Shown in pieces: positions 18,861-41,827 of a stretch of 64,000 nucleotides of DNA; position 1 is the first letter of the stretch, and each line of letters starts with the position of its first letter. Under the pieces are notes generated by a model. That model had not been told where the DNA came from, ran no database searches, and saw only the letters and a list, made by a program, of their open reading frames with translations. The DNA is from an uncultured Christensenella sp. (GTDB taxonomy: Bacteria > Bacillota > Clostridia > Christensenellales > UBA3700). Location of the stretch: positions 115,464 to 179,463 of the forward strand of contig CASERZ010000003.1 in NCBI GenBank assembly GCA_949290515.1, given 5' to 3'. Both the position numbers and the translations under genes were made by a program.

Positions 18861-20258
18861 TTATTCTTTGTTTTCCGTGTTCGTATCGTCGGATTTCGCG
18901 CCGAGCTTGAGTTTCTTTCTCAAAATCATCTCGCCCTTCTTAGCCGTTACGCCCATAGCGATAATTACCGCAAGAATAAGCACTACAGCTTCGATTATTA
19001 CGAATACTACCAAAGTAATAGGAGAATCCTTGGTCTTGGTTGCCTGCGAAGTTACTCTGACAAGCGACTGTACGTTGTAGCTCTCGTTGTAATCCTTTAT
19101 CATATTCTGATATGCCGCAAGCACTGCGTTGGCGTCTGCTATCAAAGCTGCTTCCATTGCGTCGGCATTAGCGATTATCTGATTTTTCTCTTCTTCGGGT
19201 TTTGAACTGAAGTTCGCATTCTCGTAACAAGTCTTGTAATACGTCCAGTCATTGAGATTGTTCTGCGCCTCGGTAAGAGTGTCGATAGAGGTGATAAGAT
19301 TGTCGATTATCTCCTTGCCCTGCTGATTTACGATTTGATAAATCTGACTGGGGTCGCTGGGAATAATTATGTTACTCTGCGAACACAGTTTCTCGAATGC
19401 GGTCGTATAGGTCGTTACGTTCTTTTCATAAGTAGCTACCCTGTCGGTATACTCCTGTACTTTTGCGTCGATATTGCTCTTTTCGCTGCCCGAATCTATA
19501 CCGTTGCTGACAATATAATACTTGTACGTATCAAGCTCGAGTGCGAGTGCCTCCGCTCTTTTTGCCAAATTGCTGAATGAAAGATTTTGCGTCGTGGACT
19601 CGAACAAAGGTGCCTTTGCCGCAAGACTGTCCGCTTCGCTCTTCATTATTACCAAAAGATTGCGGATATTGTAATACTTGTCGAGATAATTCGTACCTAC
19701 GGACGATATCGCCGAAAGGTCTGTCGAATAGGAATACTTGTTTTTGAACGATTCGATATACGTAGACGTTATGGCGTCCACCATATTGTAGTAGTCGTTT
19801 TTGGAATTTAGATATTTGTCAATCTCTCCCGACTGCGTGATTATAATTCTGAAATTGTAATCGGCGTTGAGAATTACTTCTTCTGCGTTTTTATTGACGT
19901 TTGTCTTATCCGTGATAACGGTAAGATTCTTGATTACGGGGTCGAGCAACTCCGCTACTTCCTCTTCGCTGTATCCGCATTTAATCGACAAAGCCTTGGA
20001 TACGTTGCTTACGGATTTTACTCCGTTGACAAAATCCATCTGTCCGCCCCAAGGGTCAGTACCTTCTTCTACGCCCTCGTAATAATAGGTTATTCTAGTC
20101 TCAAACTGACTCTTGCTGAAAATTACGTCCGCAAGACCGAGTATTCCTGCCCCTACTATCAGCGCGATAAGAACGTACACAATTATCCTGACGCCGCTTC
20201 TTTTGATACGTTGCCATATCATCTTGAACGTCAACTCGCCGTTTGTGTTCTCTTCCAT
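18861..20258 (-). CDS. Wzz-like polysaccharide chain-length determinant candidate (bitopic, TM at each end)
   Basis: N-terminal LTFKMIWQRIKRSGVRIIVYVLIALIVGAG TM, a long helical periplasmic-type middle, and a C-terminal TM ITLVVFVIIEAVVLILAVIIAMG. RBS GGAGGG. The call rests on topology and context only. Confidence 0.45.
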   Translation of the reverse strand: MEENTNGELTFKMIWQRIKRSGVRIIVYVLIALIVGAGILGLADVIFSKSQFETRITYYYEGVEEGTDPWGGQMDFVNGVKSVSNVSKALSIKCGYSEEEVAELLDPVIKNLTVITDKTNVNKNAEEVILNADYNFRIIITQSGEIDKYLNSKNDYYNMVDAITSTYIESFKNKYSYSTDLSAISSVGTNYLDKYYNIRNLLVIMKSEADSLAAKAPLFESTTQNLSFSNLAKRAEALALELDTYKYYIVSNGIDSGSEKSNIDAKVQEYTDRVATYEKNVTTYTTAFEKLCSQSNIIIPSDPSQIYQIVNQQGKEIIDNLITSIDTLTEAQNNLNDWTYYKTCYENANFSSKPEEEKNQIIANADAMEAALIADANAVLAAYQNMIKDYNESYNVQSLVRVTSQATKTKDSPITLVVFVIIEAVVLILAVIIAMGVTAKKGEMILRKKLKLGAKSDDTNTENKE

Positions 20259-20444: not shown

Positions 20445-20876
20445 CTATAGATAACTCTGCATCTCGCTCATAAGCTTGCCTTCGAGTTCCATAAGACTTT
20501 GCAGCGTCTCGCAACTCTCTTCCGTCGCGCCGCTGTACTTCTTTTTGTACTCCCTCAGCTTCTTCGCGCCCATATTGCAGCCTTCTATTACCATTACCGC
20601 TATATTGCCGTCAGAACTGTCCCTCTTCAAACGCATTTTCGTCGTCATTTTTGCCATAAACTGTGCTATCGGATTAGGGTCGGCTCCGCCCTCGCAAAAC
20701 TCCGCAAGTTGCTCTCTTGTGCGCGCAACTATATCCTCGTGCTTTTTTATATATTCAGACAATGCGTCTTTAAGTGCCTTTTCCGTCACGAAAGGATATA
20801 CCCTTTCAATAGTGCCTATTGCCATTTTGGCACCCGCATTACACTTCTTGAGCAAATTCGTGCTCTCTTCAGTCAT
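20445..20876 (-). CDS. hypothetical helical protein
   Basis: 143-aa ORF with a strong GGAGGAGG RBS. No motif recognised. Confidence 0.6.
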   Translation of the reverse strand: MTEESTNLLKKCNAGAKMAIGTIERVYPFVTEKALKDALSEYIKKHEDIVARTREQLAEFCEGGADPNPIAQFMAKMTTKMRLKRDSSDGNIAVMVIEGCNMGAKKLREYKKKYSGATEESCETLQSLMELEGKLMSEMQSYL

Positions 20877-21054: not shown

Positions 21055-21083
21055 TTGCCAAAACATTATTTTTATGCTAATAT
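21055..21083 (+). promoter_or_regulatory. candidate promoter of tRNA-Ser
   Basis: TTGCCA, 17 nt spacer, TGcTAATAT (extended -10), about 45 nt upstream of the tRNA. Confidence 0.5.
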
Positions 21084-21132
21084 CTCATTACGAAAACTTA
21101 ATACAAGAAAAATTCGACTTATTAAGACAAAT

Positions 21133-21223
21133 AGAGAGTTGGCTGAGTGGTCGAAGGCGCACGATTGGAAATCGTGTGAACGGTAATCCCGTTCCGAGGG
21201 TTCAAATCCCTCACTCTCTGCCA
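21133..21223 (+). tRNA. tRNA-Ser (anticodon GGA), CCA encoded
   Basis: Acceptor AGAGAGT/ACTCTCT. Anticodon stem CACGA/TCGTG with loop TTGGAAA. Long variable arm GAACGG..CCGTTC. T-arm GAGGG-TTCAAAT-CCCTC. Discriminator G plus CCA. Confidence 0.93.
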
Positions 21224-21229
21224 TAGAAC

Positions 21230-21261
21230 AGGACACAGCTTTCTGTGTCCTATTTCTTTTT
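21230..21261 (+). terminator. rho-independent terminator of tRNA-Ser
   Basis: 9-bp stem aggacacag/ctgtgtcct, loop cttt, then atttcttttt. Confidence 0.8.
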
Positions 21262-21344
21262 GCGAGAGTTCGTGAGCACCGAAATAACGTGACGCTCGCA
21301 CTAGACGCATTTGCTTGCTCGCTATTCCGTCGCTTCTCTCCTTA

Positions 21345-21398
21345 CAAATCCCTCACTCTCTGCCATAGAATAGGACACAGAAAGCTGTGTCCTATTTC
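21345..21398 (+). repeat. direct duplicate of the tRNA-Ser 3' end plus its terminator hairpin (copy 1 at 21203-21256)
   Basis: caaatccctcactctctgccatagaa[c/t]aggacacag-loop-ctgtgtcctatttc occurs twice, 142 bp apart. The only differences are one C/T change and the 4-nt loop, which is cttt versus aaag (exact reverse complement). Confidence 0.9.
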
Positions 21399-21493
21399 AT
21401 TATTTTTTCGGGCAATAAAAGATAAAAAATCATAAAGCTTCTACAAAAGAATTAAAAGAGTTTTTAAATCAAAAGGTTTAAAAAACTTTCTGT

Positions 21494-21524
21494 CAAAAAA
21501 AACAGCCGTACTTAAAGGGGCTGT
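21494..21524 (-). terminator. rho-independent terminator downstream of the phosphoesterase gene
   Basis: acagcc...ggctgt followed by tttttttt on the minus strand. Confidence 0.6.
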
Positions 21525-21556
21525 CTTTTCTCACTTAACGAAAATATACGTATTTA

Positions 21557-24947: not shown

Positions 24948-25011
24948 AGTCGCTTCTGATTGACTTAGTATCGCAAGCTGATGCACGCAAAAAAATTGTA
25001 AAAACCATAAG

Positions 25012-25042
25012 AAAATCCCGAAGTTTTGCTTCGGGATTTTTT
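25012..25042. terminator. bidirectional terminator; 3' boundary of the TIR operon
   Basis: 12-bp stem aaaatcccgaag/cttcgggatttt, loop ttttg. Confidence 0.85.
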
Positions 25043-25057
25043 AGCGGATTGAAATTT

Positions 25058-26386
25058 TTATCTTCTTGCTTTAAACAACATAAATCCCAGATTGAAGAAA
25101 AAGTCTTCTTCTATAAATTCTTCTTCCATCTTAGGATAATTGTTCTCAAGCCATTCTGCGTTATGCACGACGGTCTTGTCTTTAGGATTACGGCGCGCAA
25201 AATCGGCAAAGTCTTGCTTTACGAATGAAAAATAAATCTCAAACAATGCCAGTCTGTCGTCATAATCCATACCTACGGTGTTTATGCCGTCTTTAAGCAA
25301 TTCAATTTTTCTGAATCCTGATTTACGCAGCAATCCGTAAATCTGTCTGCCGCTTTTTCTGTATCCGCTCAGGGGGTCCTGTGCGCACAAACCTATTGCC
25401 GTTTCAAACATTCCGTCCTTGTCGGGATAAGCAATGTTGAAACCGTCATCTATGTCCTTGACAATCACTACGGCGTCGGGTTTTGTGAATTTGCGTATCG
25501 TACGAAGCATTTTTATAGGATTTTTTATATGCAATAGCACCATCGAAATGTTGACTACGTTAAAATCGCTTATGCCGCGTCTTTTGCAAATATCTGACAG
25601 CTTATCTTCAAAATCGTCGCTTTCCAAATCGCATTGCTCAAAGAATATCTTATCGTTCCCGAAAGATTCGTTGGCTATATCGACAGTCCCCTGACTGTAT
25701 TCCAGCCCGAGCAAAGCCGTAAGGTTTGACTTGTTTCCCAAACGGTTCATTATAAATTCGCCGTTGTTGCTGCCCACGTCGAGCACACGCATATCCTCCG
25801 TTTGGGACGCAACCTCGTCATATAAGAATTTGTCGAATTTCTCCAGCAAAATACGCTGTTTTTTAAGACGCTCCGTTTCCTTTTTATCGGTGGAATCGTA
25901 ATATGTATTTGAATGTCTTTCGCAGGATTTTTTTATCTCTTCGTTTACAGGACGTATGATTGCCTTGATTTTGTTTTTAAGCTCCTGCACAGCGTTTTCT
26001 ATTCCTTGCAAAGAAGCGTCTATCCAGTGCATACGTTTGACATAGTACTCCATAGCCTTTGACAAATCCTTGTCGTCCAGCTTGAAAGGAAGTATAGTCA
26101 ATTCTCCCTGATTGTCGATAATCCTCTTATAAGCCATCTCGACTTCGTTGAGTACGTGAGGCGACTTAGACGACTCGTTGTTGAGCAATACCACAAAAAC
26201 GCTTGCGCTGTCTATAGCGTTTACTATACTCGTAGCGTAATCGCCTATAACGTCGCGGGGCGCATACCAGCACCTTATGCCCTCATTTTCAAGTTCGCTG
26301 CAAATTCTGTCAACTACCGATTTGAGGCTGTGCTCGTAACTCAAAAATACATCTACCCTAGAAGTATCCTTATCCGATTTTTCCAT
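25058..26386 (-). CDS. TIR domain - class I SAM-dependent methyltransferase fusion protein
   Basis: N-terminal VDVFLSYEHSLKSVVDRICSELENEGIRCWYAPRDVIGDYATSIVNAIDSASVFVVLLNNESSKSPHVLNEVEMA is bacterial TIR pattern with a conserved Glu. C-terminal MRVLDVGSNNGEFIMNRLG (motif I-like) ... FNVVNISMVLLHIKNP...KPDAVVIVKDIDDG (motif IV-VI-like). The ATG at 26386 follows GGGGAG; the track's longer start at 26461 would overlap the GNAT gene. Confidence 0.75.
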   Translation of the reverse strand: MEKSDKDTSRVDVFLSYEHSLKSVVDRICSELENEGIRCWYAPRDVIGDYATSIVNAIDSASVFVVLLNNESSKSPHVLNEVEMAYKRIIDNQGELTILPFKLDDKDLSKAMEYYVKRMHWIDASLQGIENAVQELKNKIKAIIRPVNEEIKKSCERHSNTYYDSTDKKETERLKKQRILLEKFDKFLYDEVASQTEDMRVLDVGSNNGEFIMNRLGNKSNLTALLGLEYSQGTVDIANESFGNDKIFFEQCDLESDDFEDKLSDICKRRGISDFNVVNISMVLLHIKNPIKMLRTIRKFTKPDAVVIVKDIDDGFNIAYPDKDGMFETAIGLCAQDPLSGYRKSGRQIYGLLRKSGFRKIELLKDGINTVGMDYDDRLALFEIYFSFVKQDFADFARRNPKDKTVVHNAEWLENNYPKMEEEFIEEDFFFNLGFMLFKARR

Positions 26387-26406
26387 CCTTAATCTCCCCT
26401 GATATT

Positions 26407-27036
26407 TTAGCTGTCTATTTTTATGTTTTTTACGGTATGCAGTCTTATCATAGAATAGCATCTTACCTTTCCGTTTCCGTATCCGCCGTAATCGTCGTAT
26501 TCGTAAAGTATCCTGAATCCGTTGTCACGGTAGAGCTTTACCGCGGTTTCATTGGAGGTAAGCACGGTAAGCATTATGTTTGAATTGCCCGCCATACGTA
26601 TTACTTCCTTTACCATAAAATCGCCTACTCCGCGTCTGCGGTATTCCTTGCGGACGCATACGTTGCACGCCTTGACTTCGGGTTGGTAATTATGTGCTTC
26701 CTTAAAATACTTGCTTACGGCATTGAAAGATTGAGGCAAAGCTACGCCCGCTTCGATAAAAGCCATCCTCACCTCTTCTTCCTGCCAGTCGTCGCCGTAC
26801 TTGAAAATCGCTATCATACCCAGAATGTCTTTGTTGTCCAACGCCAGATAATAACAGGACCGTTTAAAGATACCGCTATCGCGGCGGAAAAGACAGGGCA
26901 AAACTTTGACCGCGTTTTCGTACGACCCAAACAAATCTTTGTATATGAACGGGTCAGTCTCCATAAGCAGTTCGGCAATAGTATAGATATCGTCATCCGC
27001 GCGGAGTCTGCGTATTTCCCAATTATCTTTTGTCAA
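26407..27036 (-). CDS. GNAT-family N-acetyltransferase
   Basis: NVCVRKEYRRRGVGDFMVKEVIRMA (R-x-x-G-x-G/A acetyl-CoA motif) and NETAVKLYRDNGFRI. TTG start at 27036 with a GAGGAAGA RBS, overlapping the upstream gene by 14 nt. Confidence 0.8.
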   Translation of the reverse strand: MTKDNWEIRRLRADDDIYTIAELLMETDPFIYKDLFGSYENAVKVLPCLFRRDSGIFKRSCYYLALDNKDILGMIAIFKYGDDWQEEEVRMAFIEAGVALPQSFNAVSKYFKEAHNYQPEVKACNVCVRKEYRRRGVGDFMVKEVIRMAGNSNIMLTVLTSNETAVKLYRDNGFRILYEYDDYGGYGNGKVRCYSMIRLHTVKNIKIDS

Positions 27037-29368
27037 GTTCGTCTTCCTCGTAAATAATCAAAATAGGTTCTATCCACAACTTGAGAGATTCTGCCGACCT
27101 CTGTTTGTTGGGCAGACAATAATATTTCTCGTTGAGTTTATATCTGAATTCGCTGAGCACCTTAATATTGACGTCCTGACCTTTTGCGGATATAATCGAA
27201 AAGTTGTTGATGTGATAACCGTCACCCGTCTGCTTTGCGTACTGATAAGTAGCGACAAAAGGGAATATTGCTTTAAGCGACAATTCGATATCCCATACGT
27301 CCTTGTTGTTGCGCTCGCCTGTCTGCAAATATCTGCATACCTCAATGACCTTGTTTATGAGCGAATAAGCTTCGGAATTAGTCGCGTTGTCCGCATTGAC
27401 TCTCCAGCAGTCTTCGAGGCTTTGCGTAATGTAATCGCAATCCATAAGCTGTTGACGTCCCAGCATCTGTTTGAGCACTTTGTAGCCTTCTTTGCCGGGC
27501 ACGTACTCATTGCACACTTCTTCAAGCATAGCAAAAATTTTCTTGTGGTCGCTGGCGGTGTTTTCTATAAGCTTTTTGTATTTTGCCGCCTCGGCATTGA
27601 ATATCACCTGTGCCTCGCTCTGATATGCTTCTATTTCCTCGTCGGTCAGAACTCTGTAATAGGATTCGTTTTCAAAAAGCATTTTCTGCTTTGTGTACTT
27701 GATAAGACCTCTGTAGAAAATAATCAGGGTGCTTACTGTCTGACTGACTATAGCCCTCGTCTTCTCTATTTTCTGCTTAGGCTTTTCGTTGAAGTCGTCG
27801 CGTATGCTTTCCAAAAGCTGTATGCGCGAACGGATACTGAGCGGGAAACCCACTTTTTCGTCCACGACCTGATTGCCGTTGACGGCGCGCGTAACGTTGG
27901 CTACAATGGTACGGACTTGTACTTCGACGCGTATTGACTCCTTCTCTCTGTCATACACAAAAGCACCTCTGCCCACGCCGACGCTGTTTCTGTAATGAAT
28001 CTTCTCTTCTTCTTTTTCTATTTCTTTTTTTGCTTTGGCAAGTATTTCCGACGAAGAAAATAGGTCTCTGCCGAAACGTAATTCCAGATTCTTGACAAGC
28101 TTCTGAAAAGCCTGTGAATTTGCCGAAAAAATCGTTTTGAGAAGTTTACCCGCCCCTTCTTCCACCATCAGTATCGCTATTATTACGTCCCATTGCAGCG
28201 ACATTGTATTTTCTTTCGAGGATGAGAAAAGTATTCGGAATCTGCTGTCGTCGGCATAAGTTCTATAGATATTATGCTGGTCTGTACGGTCGAGTATATC
28301 CACGACCGCAAGCGCGAGATTTCGGATATATTTGTAGTTTATCGCGTAAAAGTCTTCGATAATGGGTTTGTTATCGGTAAAATTAACGAAGCCTTTTTCC
28401 CCGAAAAAATTTTCTGCACAAAATATTTCGTAAGACTGTTTTACGAAGAATACGTTTTCGTGGTCATAGTCGGACAATACGCTTTCGTCTTCCGCTATAA
28501 TCACGCTTATAAAAGTCGATGTGGGTTCAAATGACACGTAATTGAGTTTGACGCCTACTATATTCGTGTCGCCTTGCATTTCAAAGGCATCGCCGCCGCT
28601 TACCGCATCGCCTTTATCTGTAATAAATTCTGTTCCGGCAAGATAGTAATAACTGCGCGCTACTTTGATAAGACAATTGAAAGTGTCAATATCTCCGACA
28701 AATTCTTTCTGCGTGAAGAAGTCGTCGTTTCTCCACAATACTTTCTGAAGTTTTACTCCGTCCTGCGCCTGTCCGTTTTGGTAGAATACCGCGTTGTGAT
28801 TGACTTCGAGTTTTGCCGAAAGATTTTTAAAAAAGGCAAAGTTCTTGACAAAATCCATAAATTCGTCAATGCGGTCGCTAACGTTAGTGGAATCGTTAAA
28901 ACGCGAATCCGTCCTCGCCTTTTTAGCCATATAAGCCATACGGGCAAATTCCGTACTCTGGAAAATGTCGTGAGTTATTCTCAGCTCCTGAGAGATTACC
29001 CCGTTGAGCGCGATATCTATCTGCAAATCCATCAGTATGCTTTCCATAACCTCGTAAGACAATTCGTTGAGGATATACATTCTGCGCATTACCTTGAATA
29101 TTCTGATAAGGTCGTTGTCGGTAGGTCCTTCGTCAATTTCGTTGTCTACCAACGACCACTTTCTATATCTGAAATAGACGTAATGATAAGTCATTATCAG
29201 AAGCTTGGAAACATAGTAAAGTATCTGGGTTCTGTCCCCCAGAAAATCGTCTCTGCGGATATCGTTGCCGAACAGCATATTGCGTACCGTCTCGTCGGGA
29301 ATCATTTTGTTCAGCAACTCTTTTGCAGAGTTACATTTTTGCGCTATGGTTACCTTGGTCTCTGCCAT
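27023..29368 (-). CDS. large hypothetical protein (about 781 aa), no recognisable domain
   Basis: Long uninterrupted ORF inside the operon. The ATG at 29368 lies 5 nt after GGAG; the track start is the GTG at 29374. Predicted largely helical, with a charged coiled segment AKAKKEIEKEEEKIH. Confidence 0.75.
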   Translation of the reverse strand: MAETKVTIAQKCNSAKELLNKMIPDETVRNMLFGNDIRRDDFLGDRTQILYYVSKLLIMTYHYVYFRYRKWSLVDNEIDEGPTDNDLIRIFKVMRRMYILNELSYEVMESILMDLQIDIALNGVISQELRITHDIFQSTEFARMAYMAKKARTDSRFNDSTNVSDRIDEFMDFVKNFAFFKNLSAKLEVNHNAVFYQNGQAQDGVKLQKVLWRNDDFFTQKEFVGDIDTFNCLIKVARSYYYLAGTEFITDKGDAVSGGDAFEMQGDTNIVGVKLNYVSFEPTSTFISVIIAEDESVLSDYDHENVFFVKQSYEIFCAENFFGEKGFVNFTDNKPIIEDFYAINYKYIRNLALAVVDILDRTDQHNIYRTYADDSRFRILFSSSKENTMSLQWDVIIAILMVEEGAGKLLKTIFSANSQAFQKLVKNLELRFGRDLFSSSEILAKAKKEIEKEEEKIHYRNSVGVGRGAFVYDREKESIRVEVQVRTIVANVTRAVNGNQVVDEKVGFPLSIRSRIQLLESIRDDFNEKPKQKIEKTRAIVSQTVSTLIIFYRGLIKYTKQKMLFENESYYRVLTDEEIEAYQSEAQVIFNAEAAKYKKLIENTASDHKKIFAMLEEVCNEYVPGKEGYKVLKQMLGRQQLMDCDYITQSLEDCWRVNADNATNSEAYSLINKVIEVCRYLQTGERNNKDVWDIELSLKAIFPFVATYQYAKQTGDGYHINNFSIISAKGQDVNIKVLSEFRYKLNEKYYCLPNKQRSAESLKLWIEPILIIYEEDELDKR

Positions 29369-29380
29369 AATCACTCCGTA

Positions 29381-30271
29381 TTATTCTGTTATCAAATCTG
29401 CAAACGCCTCGTACATTTCGAGAGCCTTCTGCTCGTCGGGAGAATGTTTTTCCATATTGTAAAGGATATCCTCTCTGAACTTGAATCTCACAACTTCAGG
29501 CACGCCGAATCTTCCGTTTTCGAGCATTCCGAAGTTGACGTCGTTGTACTTTATGATATCGCTGATTTTATTCTTGATTTCGTTCTTGACTGCCTCGTAA
29601 TTGTAGGGTATATCGTCGAGAACGATATTATCCGAGGGTACAGCGTTGGGTACGATAATATACTTCTTATTTGCCACCTTAGGGTCGAAGCCCGCAAGGA
29701 AAGAGTATGTACCCTTTCTGAATTGCAAAGTGATACGCATTACGGTAACGAGTTTTGACGACAAACGCAGACTTACGTCCGCAGTCATCTGACTTCCCGT
29801 AGGGCAATCGAAAATCATACCGCAACAATCGAAGTCTTCGCAAAGAGCCTTGATGTCGTCAAAGGGATTGCCTTCTATGTAATAGCTGTTGCTGTCCTGT
29901 TCGACGCCGATTGCGCCCTCTGTTCTCGCAGGCAAAAAGAGTATGCTTCTTTCTTCGAATCCGTATACGTCGCCTATTCCTACGAGTGCCTGAAAAAAGG
30001 GATGCGCCGCTATGTCCTCAACGCACGAGTATCTGCCGGGATACGAACCCGCGATAATATTTTGCGTATACAAAGCCGCTTTCTGCGCCTTGTGCGAATA
30101 AAGGAATGTCAAACCCGCGCTGTCGATATCCATATCGAGAATGAGCAGCGGTCTTTGAGGCGTAGCTTTTAATTTCTTTGCCAAAAATGGTATTGTGTTG
30201 TACAACAACGAGCTTCTGCCCGAGCCGCCCTTATAAGAAAAATATGCCAATGTTTCCATACCTGTATCCAC
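29381..30271 (-). CDS. ParA/MinD-like (SIMIBI) P-loop ATPase with degenerate Walker A
   Basis: METLAYFSYKGGSGRSSLLYNTIPFLA compares with the canonical KGGxGK[ST]. Followed by LLILDMDIDSAGLTF and IFDCPTG (Walker B-like). Alternative start is the ATG at 30259; RBS AAGGAGAG. Confidence 0.65.
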   Translation of the reverse strand: MDTGMETLAYFSYKGGSGRSSLLYNTIPFLAKKLKATPQRPLLILDMDIDSAGLTFLYSHKAQKAALYTQNIIAGSYPGRYSCVEDIAAHPFFQALVGIGDVYGFEERSILFLPARTEGAIGVEQDSNSYYIEGNPFDDIKALCEDFDCCGMIFDCPTGSQMTADVSLRLSSKLVTVMRITLQFRKGTYSFLAGFDPKVANKKYIIVPNAVPSDNIVLDDIPYNYEAVKNEIKNKISDIIKYNDVNFGMLENGRFGVPEVVRFKFREDILYNMEKHSPDEQKALEMYEAFADLITE

Positions 30272-30277
30272 TCTCCT

Positions 30278-32380
30278 TTACTGTCTTTCGCCGTTGATAA
30301 AGCTCAAAATTTCGCCGTTTTTGGTCAAAACGATTTTCGTCAGCCAGTCTTTGACTTTCTTGCCGACCTTGTCGGTAATCTGGAAGCCGCCTTCTTTAAG
30401 TATCTTGCCGAAATACTTGTGCAGAATATACTTGTCGACGACTTGCTCGAATTCGCTGTCCTCGTCTGTTGCGATTCTCTTGCTTAACGCCTCGATGAGA
30501 TAGCGGTCGAAGTTATCAGTCATAGTCTCGTCTATAATCGCGATAATTTCTTTTATGAGAGGTTCGCGGTTGACGGTAAGTTCTCTGATGGTCTTGTCCT
30601 TTTCCGCTATTATCTGCTTGTAAGACTCCTTATCCTGCGACCACTCTTTTCTCAGAGCTTCGATACGTTTGTCAGCCTCGGTCTTGAGTTTTTCTCTCTC
30701 GTTTTTAAGTACTTCTTCAGGCTCTATGTAGCATTCTTCGTACTGCTCGTAATACTCGTAGAAGTTGAACAAGGCTTTGATAAAATAGTTTTCGCTGGTG
30801 ATATTGTAGCCTTCTTTATCCCAAGCCCACTCTTTTCCTTTATCGCTGTCCGACCTGTTGTCGAGTATGAGTTTGAGATATTCGATATTCTGCTTCTGAG
30901 GATACTTTATAAGATAACGCGATACTTCGTTGTAAGCTCTTATAAGCAAAGGCAAAAGGCTTGCCACTTGTATTCTCTGTCTTCTGAGGACTTTTGCAAG
31001 CGGAGCAACCGCCGAAGGCATCTTTTCCTTAAAACTGAGTACGTACTGCTCGACGATATAAGTCTTGTCCTCCTTGAGGAGATACTTGTAGCATCTGAGA
31101 ATATTCTGAAGCGCGTACTGCATTTCGTCGAAAAATTCGTCGCCTTTACCCATTATGTCGTAATCGAGGTCGATACCTGAATAGATAAGTATGAGTACGT
31201 GCAATACGGTATTGATTACGGCATCGTTTGTGGTACTGTTTTCGATATCGTCAAAATCCATCTCTACGTAATTCTGACCTATAAACTTGGATGCCAAATC
31301 TATTTCGTTGCCTATAAGACCGTTGGCGCGCATTTCCTCGTATCTTCCCGCCGACATACATTGCAGCTGGAATTCTTTGAAAACCTTGACTATAAGTTCG
31401 TAAAATCTCTTATTTTGCGTATAAATGTAAGAAGGTGCTTCGTTTATACGGTTTTTGTCAGCGTCCTCGAATACTTCCTGCAAGGATTGATATACAGACA
31501 TATACGCACTGCAAACAGAATAAGTCATATACATCGAAGGCTCGTACTCTTCGTCAGTTTCTGACACCTTGAAGAAGTTCCAGCCCAGATATCCTACCAG
31601 ACTGCTCTTTGCCATCTTTCCGCCGATAGAATAATGTATCGTCTTTTTAGCAGGTATGCACGCGCTGCAAATCCAGCCTATCGTGTATTTGACGAGATGT
31701 TCTATCATCTCCGTCATTTTGGCAGAAGTTACAGGCTGCGATTCGAATGTAAGCGTCAGACGGTGTCCGTCATACTCCTGTCGTATTATCATATCTCGCG
31801 TTTCGACCAAAGATTTGAGTACGTTGCAAGCCGACTCGACGCAGGTATTGATTGCAAAAGCGTCGTCGTCGTCTTCGTAATCGTTGCTCTTTACGAAAGG
31901 GGTCATATTGAAAGTAAGAAGCTCTTTGCCGTAGTCGAGATTATCTCCCATAGCAACTATCTTTTCGTATACTTCACTCGTAAAACCTATCTGTTTGAAA
32001 ATATCGTTGAGCGTATGGTCGACTATGTCGGTATATGACGACATATCCATACCGAAACCGTTGAGAGAGGATATAGCCTGCATACCCAGACATTGAGTCA
32101 AAAGTCCCACCTGAGTACGGTCCATATCCGTATTGTAAAAACCTCTTGCAAATTTCTTAGCCTGATTTCCTTTGCCCGAATTATACTTCTTGTTGAACAA
32201 AACTTTGGCAATTTGCTGAGCAATTTCCTTTTTGTTCTTGTATCGGTTGAAAATTACCTTGGAATCCGACCTCTTGTCTATGATATCCGTCAACGCTCTG
32301 TCTTCATCGTTCATCTCGGCAGTTTCGTTGACAAAAGTATTTTTTTCTTTCGTCAAATCCTGACTTGTTTGTTCTTGCAT
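30278..32380 (-). CDS. large hypothetical protein (700 aa), no recognisable domain; C-terminal coiled-coil
   Basis: Long ORF with RBS GGGGGGAG. Helical repeat-like body. Coiled segment EEVLKNEREKLKTEADKRIEALRKEWSQDKESYKQIIAEKDKTIRELT. Confidence 0.75.
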   Translation of the reverse strand: MQEQTSQDLTKEKNTFVNETAEMNDEDRALTDIIDKRSDSKVIFNRYKNKKEIAQQIAKVLFNKKYNSGKGNQAKKFARGFYNTDMDRTQVGLLTQCLGMQAISSLNGFGMDMSSYTDIVDHTLNDIFKQIGFTSEVYEKIVAMGDNLDYGKELLTFNMTPFVKSNDYEDDDDAFAINTCVESACNVLKSLVETRDMIIRQEYDGHRLTLTFESQPVTSAKMTEMIEHLVKYTIGWICSACIPAKKTIHYSIGGKMAKSSLVGYLGWNFFKVSETDEEYEPSMYMTYSVCSAYMSVYQSLQEVFEDADKNRINEAPSYIYTQNKRFYELIVKVFKEFQLQCMSAGRYEEMRANGLIGNEIDLASKFIGQNYVEMDFDDIENSTTNDAVINTVLHVLILIYSGIDLDYDIMGKGDEFFDEMQYALQNILRCYKYLLKEDKTYIVEQYVLSFKEKMPSAVAPLAKVLRRQRIQVASLLPLLIRAYNEVSRYLIKYPQKQNIEYLKLILDNRSDSDKGKEWAWDKEGYNITSENYFIKALFNFYEYYEQYEECYIEPEEVLKNEREKLKTEADKRIEALRKEWSQDKESYKQIIAEKDKTIRELTVNREPLIKEIIAIIDETMTDNFDRYLIEALSKRIATDEDSEFEQVVDKYILHKYFGKILKEGGFQITDKVGKKVKDWLTKIVLTKNGEILSFINGERQ

Positions 32381-32392
32381 AGTCTCCCCCCG

Positions 32393-33574
32393 TTATCTGG
32401 TGTATTTTTCTAAAAGTTTGTCTATATTAATCGTAATGCAGGGTCTTATTCCGCACATCACGTTTGAACCTACGTTTACTGTCATAGGACTGTATTTCTT
32501 AAAATAAGCCGTTACCTTTCCGTCGAGTTTTCCCCAGAACATAGGCCAAAAACTGCTCTTGCGGTAAGACTTGCAGTAATCAGTCTCGACGTTGGCGGTA
32601 ATAACGTTGTCGAATTCTTTTAGCGATTCTATATCGGGCAATCCCGCTTCTTCTATACAGCTTCTGATATCGTCGTCATCTACCGCATTTTTGATAAAGC
32701 TTTCAAAATAACCTTGCAAATCTGCTCCGTTGCACTTGTCCAGCACGTGTTCGGCTATGGCAACCGCTCTGGTATTGTCGTTTTTTAATATAATCCATCT
32801 GAGCGGTCCGTGAATAAAACCGTTGCCGTTTTTTATTGTCGCCAATCCTTCCGCAGTCTGCTTTACCCCGTCCTGAATTACAAATTCCCCGCTCGCCTTT
32901 TGCTGAGGAAAGCTTCCCAAACGAATAAAAGAAATCCCGTTTTCCTTGCTGGCAATAGGAAGTCTTGACAGCTTGTCCAAAGCGACGTCGTCGCTGCAAA
33001 ACAGGTTTTCGTCGTAATTCTTGAGTTCTTCTATAAGCTTGGTGAGATGAAAACCGTTGTCTGTGCGGTTAAGATAAAATACGGACGACTTGATGTTTTT
33101 CAAAACGTTCTCTACCCTCTCCGCGGGGAAAGCCGCGTCGAGTTGCTGCGCAGTCATATCCGCGCAAGATATGTATGCGTCACGCACAGTGGCATTTACC
33201 GTCGACGAATTCACCGAAACCGGAAAAAGCTTGAAGTCCTTCCTGCCGCTGTCCTCAATCTCTCTGTAAATTCTCAGTTCTTTTTCGCAAGCCGCGCTCT
33301 TGACCATATCCGCGCTGAAATAAAGTATAATTCCTGCGCATTGAGGATTGCGAATCATATCCTCTACCGTCTTATCCCACTCGTCACCCACGGAAAGCTT
33401 CTTGTCATACCAGTAATTGAGACAATTGTTGTACAATACGGACAAATCGGCATACACGGTATCGGCATCCTTGTGTGCATAACTGATAAACATATATCTG
33501 TCAGTCTTTTTCCACGTTTTTCTGTCCGAAAAGCACAACGGCTGTCGGTTTTTGTCCTGCAAATTCTCTTCCAT
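32393..33574 (-). CDS. TIR domain protein with a C-terminal DUF6273-like domain
   Basis: YMFISYAHKDADTVYADLSVLYNNCLNYWYDKKLSVGDEWDKTVEDMIRNPQCAGIILYFSADMVKSAACEKEL is TIR_2 pattern with a conserved Glu. The C-terminal part (FIRLGSFPQQ..., PLRWIILKNDN..., FWPMFWG..., MCGIRPCITINI) resembles the W.VL ... GVRPA pattern of DUF6273. There is no SD before the ATG at 33574; the alternative start is M28 (33493). Confidence 0.7.
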   Translation of the reverse strand: MEENLQDKNRQPLCFSDRKTWKKTDRYMFISYAHKDADTVYADLSVLYNNCLNYWYDKKLSVGDEWDKTVEDMIRNPQCAGIILYFSADMVKSAACEKELRIYREIEDSGRKDFKLFPVSVNSSTVNATVRDAYISCADMTAQQLDAAFPAERVENVLKNIKSSVFYLNRTDNGFHLTKLIEELKNYDENLFCSDDVALDKLSRLPIASKENGISFIRLGSFPQQKASGEFVIQDGVKQTAEGLATIKNGNGFIHGPLRWIILKNDNTRAVAIAEHVLDKCNGADLQGYFESFIKNAVDDDDIRSCIEEAGLPDIESLKEFDNVITANVETDYCKSYRKSSFWPMFWGKLDGKVTAYFKKYSPMTVNVGSNVMCGIRPCITINIDKLLEKYTR

Positions 33575-33580
33575 ATAAAT

Positions 33581-33609
33581 ATAATAAAGGATTTTATGCG
33601 ATAAGTCAA
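33581..33609 (-). promoter_or_regulatory. promoter of the TIR operon, positioned for a leaderless or near-leaderless mRNA
   Basis: Minus strand TTGACT (33604-33609), 17 nt spacer, TATTAT (33581-33586), then only 6 nt (atttat) before the ATG at 33574. Confidence 0.55.
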
Positions 33610-33720
33610 TATTTTTGGGGTAATGACAGCTTTATGTTTGCAAATCTCCGTGCTATGCACGGTATGCCGCTCGTCAATCTTTGAACCCCCTTTCTTTTTT
33701 CAATATATAACCTTTTCATT

Positions 33721-33749
33721 GTTGAAAACGTCGGCAATATGTGTTATAA
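33721..33749 (+). promoter_or_regulatory. promoter of the divergent HD-RyR-SLOG operon
   Basis: TTGAAA (33721-33726), 17 nt spacer, TGtTATAAT (33744-33749, extended -10). Confidence 0.6.
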
Positions 33750-33783
33750 TACAATATTATAAACACATTCGGATAATTTGCCT

Positions 33784-36033
33784 ATGATGACTCTTATCAA
33801 TCAAAGTACAGTATTTTTCGACGAAAAAGACCTGTTGCATACCGACGAAGAAACTAGCGACAGACTACGCGACGACAACGGTAATTCTTTTAATTTCAAC
33901 AGAGATATAGATAAACTTTGTTTTAAAAACGCACTCACACGTTTTTTGCTTTCGGGCACTAAGGAAGACGCTTACGACATCTATTTTTGTTTCAACGAGA
34001 TATTCCAGTTGTTGGGTGAAAAGAGCGAAGGCATAAACACTCTTCTCTCGCTTCTCTATCAGCACGAGGCAAACGCCGCCTCTCTGCTGATGAAACACCG
34101 CGACCACTACTCTCACTCCGTATACATATTTGCTTTGGGGTTGGCAATCTTCTGCAACAACAAAAAGATGCGCGACGCTTTTTCGGGTATTTACGGCGGG
34201 GATAAACTATATGACAAATTCCTCAAATACTGGGGAATATGCTCGCTTTTTCACGACATAGGTTATCCTTACGAGATATCGTTTAATCAGGTTTTGGACT
34301 ACGGCAAAAAAATCGACGGTGACGTTTCGTCGGATTTTCTTTCACTGGCATATTCAAACTTCGACAACTTTGTACGCCTCACGGACGAAGAAAAGACAAA
34401 ATGTCGGCTTTTCGGCGAAGGAATAAACGATTTGGACATTAACACCCTTTTTGCAAAGTATGTTTGCGACAATTTCGGCGCAATCGGCAACAACCCGCAA
34501 AAAGACCTCGAGACTGTTTCGCAGTGCCTAAAAAGCCGAATCGTAAAACCTTCAAAGTTTATGGACCACGCTTTTTTCAGTGCCGTTATACTTATTAAAA
34601 AACTGCTTTCAACTCCTCAGTTCGTGCTGGACAAGCCCGCAATGGACAGCATAGCGGCGATACTTCTTCACAACAGCTTTTACAAGCGCACTTACAAAGA
34701 CGAGATAAGACGCAATATCGGCTATAAACAAATAAGCCTTTCATCTCACCCGCTGGCATATCTTCTTATGCTTTGCGACGAGCTGCAATGCTGGGACCGT
34801 ATGCCCTACGGAGAAAATACAAAACTGCAGAATTACCCTTGGGATATGGATATTACCGTGGGAGACAGAAGCATCAGATGCGTTTATTATTATTCGTCTC
34901 AGCCTGACGAAAAAACAGCACTCAAACAATGTACTCTCGCTGAGCAAATCAACGAAAGCGTCGTCGACACTTCCGAACTAGCTTCTCTCAACGTGCAAGT
35001 CAAAGAGAAAAGCAAAACAAAATGCGTATACAAATATCTCTCAGACAGCAAGTTTATCGACTTGCAAAAAATGGCTAGCGCAATAAACGCTTCGTATACC
35101 GAGGATTGCAACGCCGACAATATAGAGAATATGAACAAGGAGTATGCCGAACTCTCTCTCGAATACAAGCTGTCCAACATAGCGCAGGCTAAACACTATA
35201 TACAGCATATAGAAAACATAGGCTGTTTCTTCAGCGACAAACAGCTCGACCTCACGCCCGTAACGGATTTTTCAGAGGACGAAAAAGAGTATCTCGCACG
35301 TTGCGAACATATCCGCTGGGCAAACGAAAAGGTGGCTATGGGCTGGAGGTACGGAACGTATTCAAACCGTGCCGAGCGCGAACGCAAACGTCTTCACAAG
35401 GACCTCGTTCCGTACGACTATCTCCATTACGGAGAACAGAAAAAAGACTGGTACGTAATCGACAATATGGTAAAACAGCTCGATAAATTCGGCATAAAGA
35501 TTTACCGTACGTCAAACAACCTGCCCCCTTACACAGTGGGCTGCGTAGGACACAGAGACTTATCACGTATAGAAGGATTTGACGAAACGGCTGTAAGAAA
35601 AAAAATCAGGCTGCATCTCAAAAGTCTCGCTCAGGATTACAAAGTCACAATGTACAACGGATTTGCCAGAGGCGCAGACCTTCTCTTCGCCGAAGAAGCT
35701 TACAATTGCGGCATAGACGTAATCGCAGTACTTCCCGTACCTTGGGACGAATTTATTGCCGAACACGAGAACAACGGAGTAAAATTTATGCAGCTTCTCG
35801 CTCAGACGAAACAGGTTATCGTGCGTCCGCACATAGTGGCAAAATACAAAGAAGTAAGCCGTTATATATCAAGCAAAGCCGACGAGATGCTCGTACTCTG
35901 GGACGGCAAGGATAAGGACATCAAGGACGAAAAAGGAAACCACGTAAATATCGGAGGAACATTCGACACCGTGCGCAGACTTGTCAATACCGATATGAAA
36001 ATCCTGCATTTCGGAAAAAGCAGAACATTGTAA
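33784..36033 (+). CDS. HD-domain - RyR-domain - SLOG (DUF1273/YpsA-like) fusion protein
   Basis: HD motifs: HRDHYSHSVYIFALGLAIF ... SLFHDIGYPYE ... LLMLCDELQCWDR. RyR: EKEYLARCEHIRWANEKVAMGWRYGTYSNRAERERKRLHKDLVPYDYLHYGEQKKDWYVIDNMVKQLDKFGIKIYR. SLOG: VGCVGHRDL...YNGFARGADLLFAEEAYNCGIDVIAVLPVPW...ADEMLVLWDGK...IGGTFDTV. First ATG at 33784 (track start is the TTG at 33778); no obvious SD. Confidence 0.7.
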   Translation: MMTLINQSTVFFDEKDLLHTDEETSDRLRDDNGNSFNFNRDIDKLCFKNALTRFLLSGTKEDAYDIYFCFNEIFQLLGEKSEGINTLLSLLYQHEANAASLLMKHRDHYSHSVYIFALGLAIFCNNKKMRDAFSGIYGGDKLYDKFLKYWGICSLFHDIGYPYEISFNQVLDYGKKIDGDVSSDFLSLAYSNFDNFVRLTDEEKTKCRLFGEGINDLDINTLFAKYVCDNFGAIGNNPQKDLETVSQCLKSRIVKPSKFMDHAFFSAVILIKKLLSTPQFVLDKPAMDSIAAILLHNSFYKRTYKDEIRRNIGYKQISLSSHPLAYLLMLCDELQCWDRMPYGENTKLQNYPWDMDITVGDRSIRCVYYYSSQPDEKTALKQCTLAEQINESVVDTSELASLNVQVKEKSKTKCVYKYLSDSKFIDLQKMASAINASYTEDCNADNIENMNKEYAELSLEYKLSNIAQAKHYIQHIENIGCFFSDKQLDLTPVTDFSEDEKEYLARCEHIRWANEKVAMGWRYGTYSNRAERERKRLHKDLVPYDYLHYGEQKKDWYVIDNMVKQLDKFGIKIYRTSNNLPPYTVGCVGHRDLSRIEGFDETAVRKKIRLHLKSLAQDYKVTMYNGFARGADLLFAEEAYNCGIDVIAVLPVPWDEFIAEHENNGVKFMQLLAQTKQVIVRPHIVAKYKEVSRYISSKADEMLVLWDGKDKDIKDEKGNHVNIGGTFDTVRRLVNTDMKILHFGKSRTL

Positions 36034-36122
36034 TTTTTTCCATTGCTTTAACGATACCGTAGCGCAAACCTATCATTAACAATCAATATCATACGCGGGA
36101 ATTCTTCCCAAAAGAGGTTTAT

Positions 36123-38303
36123 ATGACTGCCGTCAACATTATCAGCGCAAGCTGTCTCTTACTTATGTTTACAGAGGCACTTATCATTGCGATAAAATTT
36201 TTGTCAAAATCGCGTTATGACAGAATTAATTACATAAGGTCGTTTAAAAAAGGCAGATGCTTTTTAATCTACCCTATCGCGTTCGTGCTTTACCTGACGG
36301 GAAAGCTCTATGCCGGTATGTCCGTAGCCGATGCCGTATTTATGTCCGTAAACAACGTAGTGATTCTCGTAGTATTGCGATACAATCCCGCAGACATAGG
36401 ATTGCTTATAAAAGACAATTCGTTTTTTGCGGCAACAGTATATATATGTTACGTCTTCGTTACAATCAATGCCGTAATATTTATACTTTCTGTATGCAAC
36501 CAACAAATCGTCAACGCTATCGCAAATGCGAATTTCAAACTTAGCAAACAGAAAAAATACATCGTTATCGGCAACAATACAGACAGCTATAAGATTTACG
36601 ATTCTATCAACTGCAAGACTAAGATACTTCTCGACGCCGCAGGAAAGGATGCAAAAGTCGCAAGCGCAGAATTGTATCGCAGAAGAATAAAGTACAATCT
36701 CCTCGGAAAAACCGCGTGGGATAATATCGCAGATTATTGCATAAAAAATTCTTCCCCCGTTCATTGCACGGTCATAATCAACACTCAGGACGATGAAACA
36801 AACCTCAAACTCTGCACCAAATTCACTCAAGCACTCGCAAAGCTCCGCGATTCGTCACTAGAAGACGAACACGTGGCATTGTTCGAGCGCATTGACGTAT
36901 TTGTATTTGGCAATGCAGAACTTGAATCTTTGTATCTCGATATAGCAGACAAATCTTACGGCTGTATACATTACCTTACCAGACACAGAATGATAGCTTT
37001 CGACTTCGAGGACAACTATCCTTTTGCTTCGTTTATGAATGATGATTCCATAGATTATTCTAATGCTTTACTCAAAGACAATGCTCAAATCAACGTGGCA
37101 ATGCTGGGATTCGGTAAAGTCAACAGAGAACTCTTCAAAATGGCTACGGTAAACAATCAGTTTGCCGGCGGCACAAAAGAAAATCCTATCGAGCGAAAAG
37201 TCAATTACTACGTGTTTGAGAAGGGAAAAAGCAGCAATAAAAATCTCAATCACAACTTCTTTAGATACGATACCGAATTTTCCGACTTGTCTGACAGCGA
37301 AAAGAAAAATTATCTACCCCTGCCGCCCTCTCCCGCAAACGTAGTTTTCGAGGAGAATTTCGATATTTGCCAAAGGGATTTTTACAAACGCATACACGAC
37401 ATCTTCGCTCCCGAAAAAAATACCGTCAAAAACAATTTTCTGATTATTGCCCTCGGTCACGATACCGAAAACATAGACTTTGCAAAAAAATTAATCGAAA
37501 AGAAAAACGAGTGGCAACTCGATAATCTCGTCATATTCGTGCGACTTAGAAGCGACGGCCTTGCAAAAGCTTTCAAAAACGCTTTTGCCAAACAGAATTG
37601 CTACATTTTCGGTGAAGACGCAAGGACTGTATATAACGCAGAAAAAATAGAAAAAGAAAAGTTCTATACATTGGCAATGCACCGTCATATCTCATACGCA
37701 ATAGAAAAAGCACTTAAATCAGACGCTTCGGCAGATTTGACGCAAGTCAGAAAACAAGCGGTTTACGACTGGACCGTAAATCTCTCATATTCCGAACGCC
37801 TATCGAATATATATTGTTGTCTCAGCCTGAGACACAAACTTCTTCTCACAGGACTGGATATCTGTTCCAAAGACGATAACCAAGCATTGAGCGAAAAAGA
37901 ATTTTTCGATATATACTTTTCAGGCGACCGCCCGACAAGCAATATTACCGACGACGGAAAGCCCGTGATAAACTATACTCTGGATTTTCCCGTTTCTTTA
38001 AGACGTACTCTCGCAATAACAGAGCACTACCGCTGGAACGCTTTTATGATTATGCAAGGTTTCGTTCCCAGCTCGCTGAAACAAATCCGAGAAGAAGAAA
38101 ATCACGGCAAAAACTATGCCCAACGCCGTCACGGTAACCTCACTACTTTCGACGGACTGGTGCAATTCAGAGAAATCGTTGCTCAAAAGACAGGAAAATC
38201 TCAACAAGCCTGCGACGTATTCAAATACGACTATCAGATTATGGACGATGCTTGGTGGTTCCTGCAAAAATGCGGTTTGGGGATTAAACCAAAACAAATG
38301 TAA
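36123..38303 (+). CDS. membrane protein: N-terminal TM helices, two Rossmann-like segments and a C-terminal RyR-like module
   Basis: About 4 N-terminal TM helices. KKYIVIGNNTDSYKIY and INVAMLGFGKVNRELF (weak GxGxxG-like). C-terminal YDWTVNLSYSERLSNIYCCLSLRHKLLLTGLDI followed by LAITEHYRWNAFMIMQGF...RRHGNLTTFDGL parallels the two-part RyR module of the upstream gene. There is no terminator between the two genes. Confidence 0.6.
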   Translation: MTAVNIISASCLLLMFTEALIIAIKFLSKSRYDRINYIRSFKKGRCFLIYPIAFVLYLTGKLYAGMSVADAVFMSVNNVVILVVLRYNPADIGLLIKDNSFFAATVYICYVFVTINAVIFILSVCNQQIVNAIANANFKLSKQKKYIVIGNNTDSYKIYDSINCKTKILLDAAGKDAKVASAELYRRRIKYNLLGKTAWDNIADYCIKNSSPVHCTVIINTQDDETNLKLCTKFTQALAKLRDSSLEDEHVALFERIDVFVFGNAELESLYLDIADKSYGCIHYLTRHRMIAFDFEDNYPFASFMNDDSIDYSNALLKDNAQINVAMLGFGKVNRELFKMATVNNQFAGGTKENPIERKVNYYVFEKGKSSNKNLNHNFFRYDTEFSDLSDSEKKNYLPLPPSPANVVFEENFDICQRDFYKRIHDIFAPEKNTVKNNFLIIALGHDTENIDFAKKLIEKKNEWQLDNLVIFVRLRSDGLAKAFKNAFAKQNCYIFGEDARTVYNAEKIEKEKFYTLAMHRHISYAIEKALKSDASADLTQVRKQAVYDWTVNLSYSERLSNIYCCLSLRHKLLLTGLDICSKDDNQALSEKEFFDIYFSGDRPTSNITDDGKPVINYTLDFPVSLRRTLAITEHYRWNAFMIMQGFVPSSLKQIREEENHGKNYAQRRHGNLTTFDGLVQFREIVAQKTGKSQQACDVFKYDYQIMDDAWWFLQKCGLGIKPKQM

Positions 38304-38324
38304 ATCGAGACAGTTGTTGCGAAT

Positions 38325-38350
38325 AAAGGCGGAGAAATCTCCGCCTTTAT
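38325..38350 (+). terminator. terminator of the HD-RyR operon
   Basis: 11-bp stem aaaggcggaga/tctccgccttt with a short T-run. Confidence 0.65.
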
Positions 38351-38487
38351 CAATATCTGTATATACTCTGTCTTGTCTTTTATGCCGGCATACTTCCCGA
38401 CAAACCAAATCGCCGCCCCTGAAGGCGGCGATTGTATTTATCTTTGGTAATTCTATGTAAGTCTTTTGTAATTGTAAGGTATAAACC

Positions 38488-40273: not shown

Positions 40274-40275
40274 AA

Positions 40276-40728: not shown

Positions 40729-40754
40729 AGATATAATATAACACTGTTTTTAAC

Positions 40755-40823: not shown

Positions 40824-40831
40824 AGGCGCGT

Positions 40832-41071: not shown

Positions 41072-41097
41072 TTCAAAAAACATACCTAAAACCAATC

Positions 41098-41814: not shown

Positions 41815-41827
41815 AAGGAGGGGTATA

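Follow-up and report, generated by a model that had tools for sequence, protein, structure and literature searches.

Why does the 3' end of a serine tRNA gene, together with the terminator that follows it, occur a second time 142 bp downstream? The question arises from a 64,000-nucleotide stretch of an uncultured Christensenella sp. (contig CASERZ010000003.1 of assembly GCA_949290515.1, forward-strand positions 115,464 to 179,463), hereafter the window, in which the tail of tRNA-Ser(GGA) is present in two copies. A sequence-only reading of this DNA had described the duplication as a footprint like that of integration into a tRNA gene, either the scar of an integrated and later deleted element or the near edge of accessory DNA on its right, where a TIR/RyR island lies. 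By comparing about 60 related loci, we found that the repeat belongs to a gene-less tandem unit, shared across a bacterial family, at a site where foreign cassettes join the tRNA end. With a probability of about 50%, we take it to be a remnant attachment-site unit of an integration into tRNA-Ser(GGA), the cores of which have since been used for changes of the array and for the docking of cassettes.

The tail of tRNA-Ser(GGA) is repeated together with its terminator

The repeated core, which is the final 21 nt of the tRNA gene, comprises 5 nt of the T-loop, the 3' strand of the T-stem, the 3' strand of the acceptor stem, the discriminator G, and CCA. This 21-mer occurs exactly twice in the 64 kb and in none of 100 dinucleotide-preserving shuffles. 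Repeat finding extends the match to 57 nt (21203-21259 versus 21345-21401, 89% identical, spacing 142) and, together with the 21-mer count, confirms the 54-nt repeat noted earlier (21203-21256 and 21345-21398). As had also been noted, those copies differ by one C/T change (21229/21371) and by a 4-nt hairpin loop that is exactly reverse complemented (CTTT versus AAAG); the longer alignment adds a T/A difference (21257/21399). Neither the 21-mer count nor a profile of the whole unit revealed a third copy in the window, in agreement with the sequence-only reading.

The segment bounded by the two cores is 121 bp long and gene-free. ARAGORN predicts a single tRNA, each locus having one tRNA gene, and the second core is not part of any tRNA, since its T-stem partner is missing upstream. 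The earlier statement that the 88 bp between the copies hold no open reading frame (ORF) needs amending in the letter, in that two mechanical ORFs reach into the spacer (plus strand, 21289-21435; minus strand, 21122-21310); its substance stands, as indels of 1 to 2 nt between species argue against coding. Chance and artefact were both rejected as sources of the repeat: the shuffles lack the 21-mer, and an assembly artefact is excluded because the same structure recurs in many independent metagenome assemblies.

Both hairpins resemble intrinsic terminators, being GC-rich and leading into a T-run on the strand that is transcribed, and their predicted folding energies are -15.1 and -19.0 kcal/mol (z-scores of -4.8 and -8.1). 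The stem of hairpin 1 is formed by 21230-21238 and 21243-21251, with its CTTT loop at 21239-21242. Table 1 lists the features of the locus. The DNA 5' of the tRNA, which includes the predicted promoter, is alignable between species in the cross-species alignment. Farther downstream, a hairpin of the form ACAGCC...GGCTGT (window 21497-21530) is accompanied by a T-run on either strand and probably works as a bidirectional terminator, both for the metallophosphoesterase gene and for any read-through of hairpin 2.

TABLE 1 Coordinates of features at the tRNA-Ser(GGA) locus of the window
Feature	Position	Strand	Basis or remark
Predicted sigma-70-like promoter 5' of tRNA (TTGCCA, 17 nt, TAATAT, extended TG)	21055..21083	+	Consensus scan only
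tRNA-Ser(GGA), CCA encoded	21133..21223	+	ARAGORN; Rfam tRNA 56.1 bits
Core copy 1, final 21 nt of tRNA	21203..21223	+	
Spacer TAGAAC, hairpin 1, and T-rich tail	21224..21261	+	Predicted intrinsic terminator of the tRNA; first part of repeat unit
Conserved non-coding arm (GCGAGAGTTCG...CGCTTCTCTCCTTA)	21262..21344	+	
Core copy 2, exact duplicate of the 21-nt tRNA 3' end	21345..21365	+	
Spacer TAGAAT, hairpin 2 (loop AAAG, 21381-21384), and tail	21366..21401	+	Start of truncated further unit; predicted second terminator
Right-hand junction zone	21402..21440	+	BLAST maps

The repeat is a tandem unit found in at least half of the species surveyed

Exact-protein look-ups with two neighbouring genes yielded 20 loci on 17 distinct metagenome scaffolds that are 95 to 99.5% identical to the window. 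Fifteen of these population scaffolds have the same two-core structure, at a spacing of 142 to 143. In loci L001 and L006, foreign DNA follows the CCA of the tRNA directly, and no second core occurs within 10 kb. A species survey, in which one genome per species was scanned for the 21-mer, returned 21 loci from 20 species, all of them Christensenellaceae, uncultured Christensenella, or metagenome-assembled genomes of Clostridia. In every species the left boundary of the core lies within the 7-nt T-loop, 2 nt in (between TT and CAAAT), and the right end is CCA.

Across these loci, the tandem unit measures 139 to 143 bp and consists of the 21-nt core, the terminator hairpin, and an arm of ~88 nt. 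The window contains about 1.4 copies, the hairpin of copy 2 opening a truncated further unit. A profile of the unit matches 10 of the 20 species (21 genome-collection loci); complete copies number one to two, and truncated ones occur as well. An exact second core lies 139 to 143 bp away in L011, L021, L026, and L030; the contig of L022 begins within the array and, with the tRNA out of view, has two cores at a spacing of 143 bp. L029, the closest species (89 to 95% identity to the window), has three cores and hence two complete units; over the 146 nt compared, these show 100% identity. L021 combines one complete unit with a partial or truncated further one, and most other carriers have a single unit. 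The unit is decayed in L024, L025, and L031, and in L015 it lies 5.7 kb downstream of the tRNA. The remaining 10 of the 20 species, like strains L001 and L006, show the tRNA and no unit; several of these may have flanks too short to reveal it or a distal unit as in L015.

The copies in L011, L026, and L030 share just the core plus 1 to 2 nt, and different hairpins precede the arm and follow the second core. The latter hairpin is, in L011, the one that the single-copy relatives L012 and L015 have directly 3' of their tRNA. Judged from these alignments, the anatomy looks like a 140-bp insert flanked by direct repeats of 21 to 23 bp.

Three population loci (L005, L007, and L038) continue past hairpin 2 with TTTTTGCG, as a full unit would, and then diverge into an IS30-like fragment. 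In their 360-bp insert, between window positions 21398 and 21402, an IS30-like transposase is represented by its left end and first ~42 codons, fused to a truncated helix-turn-helix (HTH) gene, of controller type, from the AlwI restriction-modification cassette. The fusion marks a deletion scar of that cassette.

Of the earlier proposal that the repeat is the scar of a deleted element, the attachment-site-like anatomy therefore holds up; a recent and private scar does not, the unit being family-wide and tandem.

The TIR/RyR island is a separate insertion

The second proposal made the repeat the attL, or proximal boundary, of the rightward accessory DNA, i.e., of the TIR/RyR island. In its favor is proximity, the island beginning 3.6 kb away with genes of defence type. 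BLAST maps place the island (13.4 kb, window 24977-38406) as an insertion of its own between a GH3 gene and the next conserved gene, its limits being the GH3 stop codon on one side and the terminator of the next gene on the other. Present in the window and in L002, it is missing from eight contigs (L001, L003 to L005, and L007 to L010), all of which retain the two genes (metallophosphoesterase and GH3) that separate the tRNA from the island site; L006 stops short of the region. Seven of the eight, L001 being the exception, keep the 142-bp duplication unchanged, an outcome that the sequence-only reading had itself named as refuting a link between the repeat and the island. The island ends bear neither a copy of the core nor a flanking direct repeat, and no recombinase was found among the island proteins. 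We rejected the repeat as a boundary of the island on the strength of these island-less relatives and repeat-free ends, and we give that explanation next to no credence.

The island encodes a TIR-methyltransferase, a GNAT protein, a second TIR protein (393 amino acids [aa]), a protein with an RyR domain (751 aa), and proteins of 783, 296, 700, and 726 aa that belong to no known family. Further segments that are present or absent among related contigs (window 39733-42635, 40277-41065, and 42880-42988) surround AzlC/AzlD, sigma-factor, and ABC-transporter genes, and the whole stretch from 25 to 47 kb is mosaic.

The arm is conserved between species and apparently exchanged at the locus

The arm is 76 to 92% identical between species, with an identity that drops roughly with species distance; the flanking genes are 64 to 77% identical to the window in their best-aligning stretches. 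The small indels mentioned above argue against coding in the arm, which is regarded as non-coding. Within the population, arm diversity amounts to 2 to 7%, compared with <1% in the flanks of most contigs. The L036 arm, at the equivalent of window 21300-21315, has the GAGACGCTATCCGC variant that characterises L029, the sister species, and its flanks match the window population, which looks like a local introgression from the L029 lineage. Exchange at the locus is indicated by this match and by an arm that is more diverse than its flanks.

Such conservation could mean that the arm and core are functional and selected, not a scar, acting as a protein-binding DNA site or as an RNA made by read-through, in imitation of the acceptor end of tRNA-Ser, with extra copies supplied by unequal crossing-over. 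Besides the conservation itself, terminator-like hairpins always bracket the unit, whatever their sequence, and a GUGACG/CGUCGC helix stays paired despite two changes that affect one side and one that affects both. According to one report, E. coli rrn operons carry a read-through small RNA between dual terminators (PMC8144298). An acceptor-like helix is invariant: GAGAGT at the 5' end of the arm can pair with ACTCTC at the 3' end of the core, leaving a GCCA tail. This pairing is uninformative either way, because both sides are invariant.

Tests for a structured RNA gave little encouragement. RNAalifold found zero compensatory pairs in the arm, and the single-sequence fold has a z-score of -0.83. 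In a structure specified by hand, 92% of cells pair, versus 91% in shuffles, and its covariation score was reached by 8 of 500 shuffles, which lies within the stated null range of the tool. No Rfam family, tRNA included, matches the unit at an E value of <=10. As covariation was not significant in this set, which has few independent sequences, a structured RNA was set aside as a weakly supported candidate. A conserved promoter is likewise absent, the unit is decayed in three species and was not seen in ten, and the apparently imported arm of L036 favors exchange over purely vertical constraint. We therefore consider a selected functional unit, the main rival to our reading, possible but doubtful.

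The head-to-tail order of the units, their variable copy number, and the identity of the two L029 units are what would also be expected if tRNA-Ser and its terminator had long ago been duplicated in tandem, had the 5' part decayed and the 3' end been held by gene conversion, with copy number shifting by unequal recombination. The same has reportedly been proposed for the E. coli tyrT repeats. Egan and Landy reportedly described, in 1978, 178-bp repeats distal to tyrT, each starting with the 3' end of tRNA-Tyr; the repeats are said to open with about 19 to 21 nt from the 3' end of the tRNA, CCA among them, to follow two tandem tRNA genes, and to contain a small ORF. They resemble the present case in being tandem units 3' of a tRNA gene, each opening with the tRNA 3' end. 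They are unlike it in that the present locus has one tRNA gene, lacks a conserved ORF, and receives foreign cargo at its cores.

In keeping with a duplicated gene, the arm opens with GAGAGTT, the bases of the tRNA 5' acceptor strand, at 104 nt from CCA versus 91 nt in the tRNA. Compared with the 5' 70 nt of the tRNA, however, the arm aligns no better than shuffles do in three of five species (P = 0.17 to 0.46); L026 (P = 0.058) and L030 (P = 0.047) are borderline, without correction. No tRNA cloverleaf was detected in the unit by a covariance model at an E value of <=10, and the 5' strand of the T-stem is absent. A second tRNA or pseudo-tRNA was rejected on these grounds. A tandem duplication also leaves unaccounted for why conversion should stop exactly in the T-loop in all species and why the arm should escape decay. 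Given an arm-tRNA similarity that is borderline at most and one tRNA gene per locus, we rate an origin like that of the tyrT repeats as low in probability.

Foreign cassettes join the tRNA end

As the sequence-only reading had it, the footprint is like that of tRNA integration: the core runs from T-loop to CCA and, in relatives, foreign cargo joins at the CCA of either copy. In L001, L006, and L028, foreign DNA directly adjoins the CCA of the tRNA gene proper; in L009 and L040, it directly adjoins that of core copy 2. A shared downstream module, consisting of the AGCGGAATCG hairpin and ~150 nt, begins directly after CCA, behind the true tRNA in L006 and L028 and behind the last repeat core in L009, L022, L029, and L040. 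The cargo past this module varies. In L006 and L042 to L045 it spans >20 kb, with DUF4238, PcfJ/PcfK, DndBCDE, and a DUF87 protein; in L028 it is an 832-aa TIR protein, in L029 a Fic-HTH protein, and in L040 a set with a 759-aa metallophosphoesterase. In other species, the DNA directly 3' of the tRNA encodes either a C5 methyltransferase or a dCTP-deaminase-like protein together with a kinase.

An AlwI-type restriction-modification pair lies within core copy 2, upstream of the AGCGGAATCG module, in L051 and L062 to L066. These loci have an HTH protein downstream of the module, which may be the controller of the cassette. The cassette begins with a different 3' end of tRNA-Ser type and its terminator, homologous to those of tRNA-Ser(CGA) in L058, and joins the resident arm at the T-loop boundary. 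The GGTT at its right end was considered as a tRNA fragment and rejected, because L067 shows it to be the end of the methyltransferase cassette itself. Related AlwI cassettes occur directly 3' of tRNA-Tyr or tRNA-Ser(CGA) in other Clostridia.

With different foreign cargo joined exactly at the CCA of either copy, the locus is a real tRNA-linked hotspot, at which mostly phage-defence cassettes appear to be exchanged. A second such hotspot is suggested by L060 and L061, from another Clostridia lineage, in which Hachiman (HamA and a helicase) and an HpaII-type restriction-modification system lie upstream of a displaced fragment that resembles a tRNA 3' end and is accompanied by the tRNA-Ser(CGA) terminator.

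In L015, a 5.7-kb island separates the tRNA from the distal unit, with two extra fragments resembling tRNA 3' ends between the island and the unit. The island (L015 1927-7296) encodes a deoxynucleoside kinase, a dCTP-deaminase-like protein, an adenylosuccinate synthetase (PurA/PurZ-like), and an 899-aa PHP/HhH/AAA protein, a nucleotide-metabolism set reminiscent of phage modules for base modification or of defence modules for nucleotide depletion.

On the 5' side of the tRNA, a gene for a 465-aa protein (window 18861-20258, minus strand) aligns in most species examined, and one for a 143-aa protein that adjoins the tRNA (window 20445-20876, minus strand) aligns only in the closer species (L021 and L028). 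Neither protein has an informative match in Pfam or NCBIfam.

Weighing integration against its difficulties

A repeated core that starts inside the T-loop and ends at CCA has the anatomy of att repeats. Of the features of islands in the Islander collection, the intact tRNA, a 3' copy in direct orientation, and the start in the T-loop are all present; an integrase gene within the segment is not. Both att repeats are retained and genes for integration and transfer are absent, as in a cis-mobilizable element (CIME). Given that no integrase was found in the window or the cargo, a gene-less, CIME-like remnant at a cassette hotspot is the best reading of the locus. This reading rests on anatomy, from which we infer the role of a recombinase and its ongoing action.

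On such an account, an element bearing a recombinase would have integrated into the segment of tRNA-Ser(GGA) from T-loop to CCA and then lost all of its genes, so that the terminator hairpin, one arm, and the att repeats remained. Recombination between cores would enlarge or shrink the array, foreign cassettes, each with its own terminator, would dock directly behind the CCA of either the tRNA or the last core, and template switching across the perfectly palindromic stem during replication would invert the loop.

Several results weigh against this account. The first is the lack of a recombinase. In line with the earlier remark that no integrase was recognised, Pfam scans of the ~47 large ORFs of the window found no integrase, recombinase, or transposase domain, the FtsH-to-CysS block (9.5 to 15.9 kb) being covered only through precomputed Pfam gene tables of related loci. 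No recombinase was found among the cargo genes of L001, L006, L011 to L031, L040, L042, and L051, which represent about ten distinct cargo modules, and the Dnd island of L006, followed for >20 kb including a further 10-kb walk, showed neither a recombinase nor a second core.

Second, no element bearing a matching attP is known. Neither the core and its variant nor the arm patterns matched viral contigs, the 142-nt stretch from the spacer to core 2 (21224-21365) had no match in plasmid or phage collections, and the arm-core junction had none in Joint Genome Institute (JGI) metagenomes, where the core by itself was found at four single-copy tRNA loci. None of the viral, phage, plasmid, JGI, or genome-collection loci yielded a cognate element that shares the att specificity and bears an integrase.

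Third, the junctions are one-sided. Cargo lies directly after core 2 or 3 in L009, L040, L022, and L029, and the opposite junctions are core-less. After insertions behind copy 2, homology to the window resumes at 21402 (L005, L007, L009, and L051) or at 21440 (L040), and the right-hand junctions are irregular overall (21402, 21440, and 22490). The right end of the AlwI cassette keeps just 9 nt of core copy 2, so that its insertion is not a clean reciprocal product. With no recombinase found and core-less right junctions, the junctions at CCA may instead reflect homologous recombination via the conserved tRNA flank. Finally, a GCTCGC-like sequence in the arm, considered as a binding motif of arm type, was rejected for want of significant enrichment (P = 0.11), and an arm that is more conserved than the neighbouring coding DNA needs a function or repeated horizontal exchange, unlike a dead scar.

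A further reading takes the tail array to be an active, selected docking platform instead of a fossil, its arm and core being recognised by a recombinase encoded elsewhere in the genome; we think this unlikely. If it were true, Christensenellaceae would capture and exchange integrase-less defence cassettes, each bringing a tRNA 3'-end fragment and a terminator, by an integron-like logic on a tRNA end, and the pseudo-core would be a safe site that spares the essential tRNA.

The hairpin loop occurs in both orientations within the population

The inverted loop had been read together with the duplication, as what inversion of the whole hairpin would look like. The reverse-complement relation stands; as a mark of the duplication event it does not, being a population polymorphism at both hairpins. 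Three loop alleles (AATG, CTTT, and AAAG) occur at the copy-1 hairpin in the population. The combinations at copies 1 and 2 are CTTT/AAAG in the window, L002, L004, L005, and L007; CTTT/CTTT in L037 and in both L029 units; AAAG/AATG in L036; AATG/AATG in L003, L010, and L038; and AATG/AAAG in L008, L034, L039, and L041. AAAG and CTTT are exact reverse complements, each is found at both positions, and there are no intermediates.

The loop thus appears to flip recurrently, as a property of the hairpin and not of the duplication. The flip recurs at both hairpins because only the 4-nt loop is asymmetric in the palindrome, and it is neutral for the folding of the stem. The most economical explanation is intramolecular template switching across the perfect stem, which would invert the loop, and gene conversion between the copies may move loop alleles. 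Two reports describe how template switching at inverted repeats inverts the spacer (PMC8604942, PMC8794818). The hairpins here resemble the inversions in those reports in their perfect stem, their exactly reverse-complemented loop, and multinucleotide changes without intermediates; unlike the cases related there, both orientations occur in one bacterial population and at two paralogous hairpins 142 bp apart.

Comparison with known tRNA-linked elements

In Dehalococcoides, tandem islands at ssrA are bounded by 20-bp repeats of the gene's 3' end, inserted in mid T-loop, with a conserved motif beside the repeat; 15 of the islands are without an integration module, and in 16 a serine-recombinase module adjoins attL (PMC3146451). 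The locus described here is alike in the mid-T-loop insertion, in a neighbouring conserved motif that does not align with the gene, and in tandem modules that often lack integration genes. It is unlike the ssrA islands in that no recombinase was found, the commonest "island" is 142 bp long and gene-less, and the conserved flank extends over ~88 nt versus 15 (PMC3146451).

CIMEs, as defined for the ICESt1/ICESt3 family of integrative conjugative elements (ICEs) together with their site-specific accretion, likewise retain att repeats and have lost the genes for integration and transfer (PMC5704250). They are kilobases long and the integrase of the cognate ICE is known (PMC5704250), whereas the present unit measures 142 bp and is CIME-like in its anatomy. 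Islander islands share with it an intact tRNA and a displaced 3' fragment in direct orientation that mark the two ends, but contain a tyrosine integrase gene, which the unit does not (PMC4383910).

What is new here is a gene-less, family-wide, and tandemly iterated repeat of a tRNA end at a hotspot of defence cassettes, a structure that is real and non-random and to which the integration history above would give a mechanism. We know of no 142-bp remnant described as conserved across a family.

Significance

For annotation, the locus teaches that a displaced tRNA 3' end is not necessarily the edge of the nearest island. The loop, found in both orientations at two positions, would be a clean natural example of template switching in a bacterial population, and the arm is a concrete case of a conserved non-coding element. 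To our knowledge, few mobile elements or genetic tools of Christensenellaceae have been described; the exact, conserved 21-nt site beside the ~88-nt arm is a candidate safe docking site for such tools. In Christensenellaceae, which form a gut lineage and are difficult to culture, the comparison locates a recombination hotspot that spans the family, where genes of defence type, including restriction-modification, DNA phosphorothioation (Dnd), TIR, Fic, and others, are turning over.

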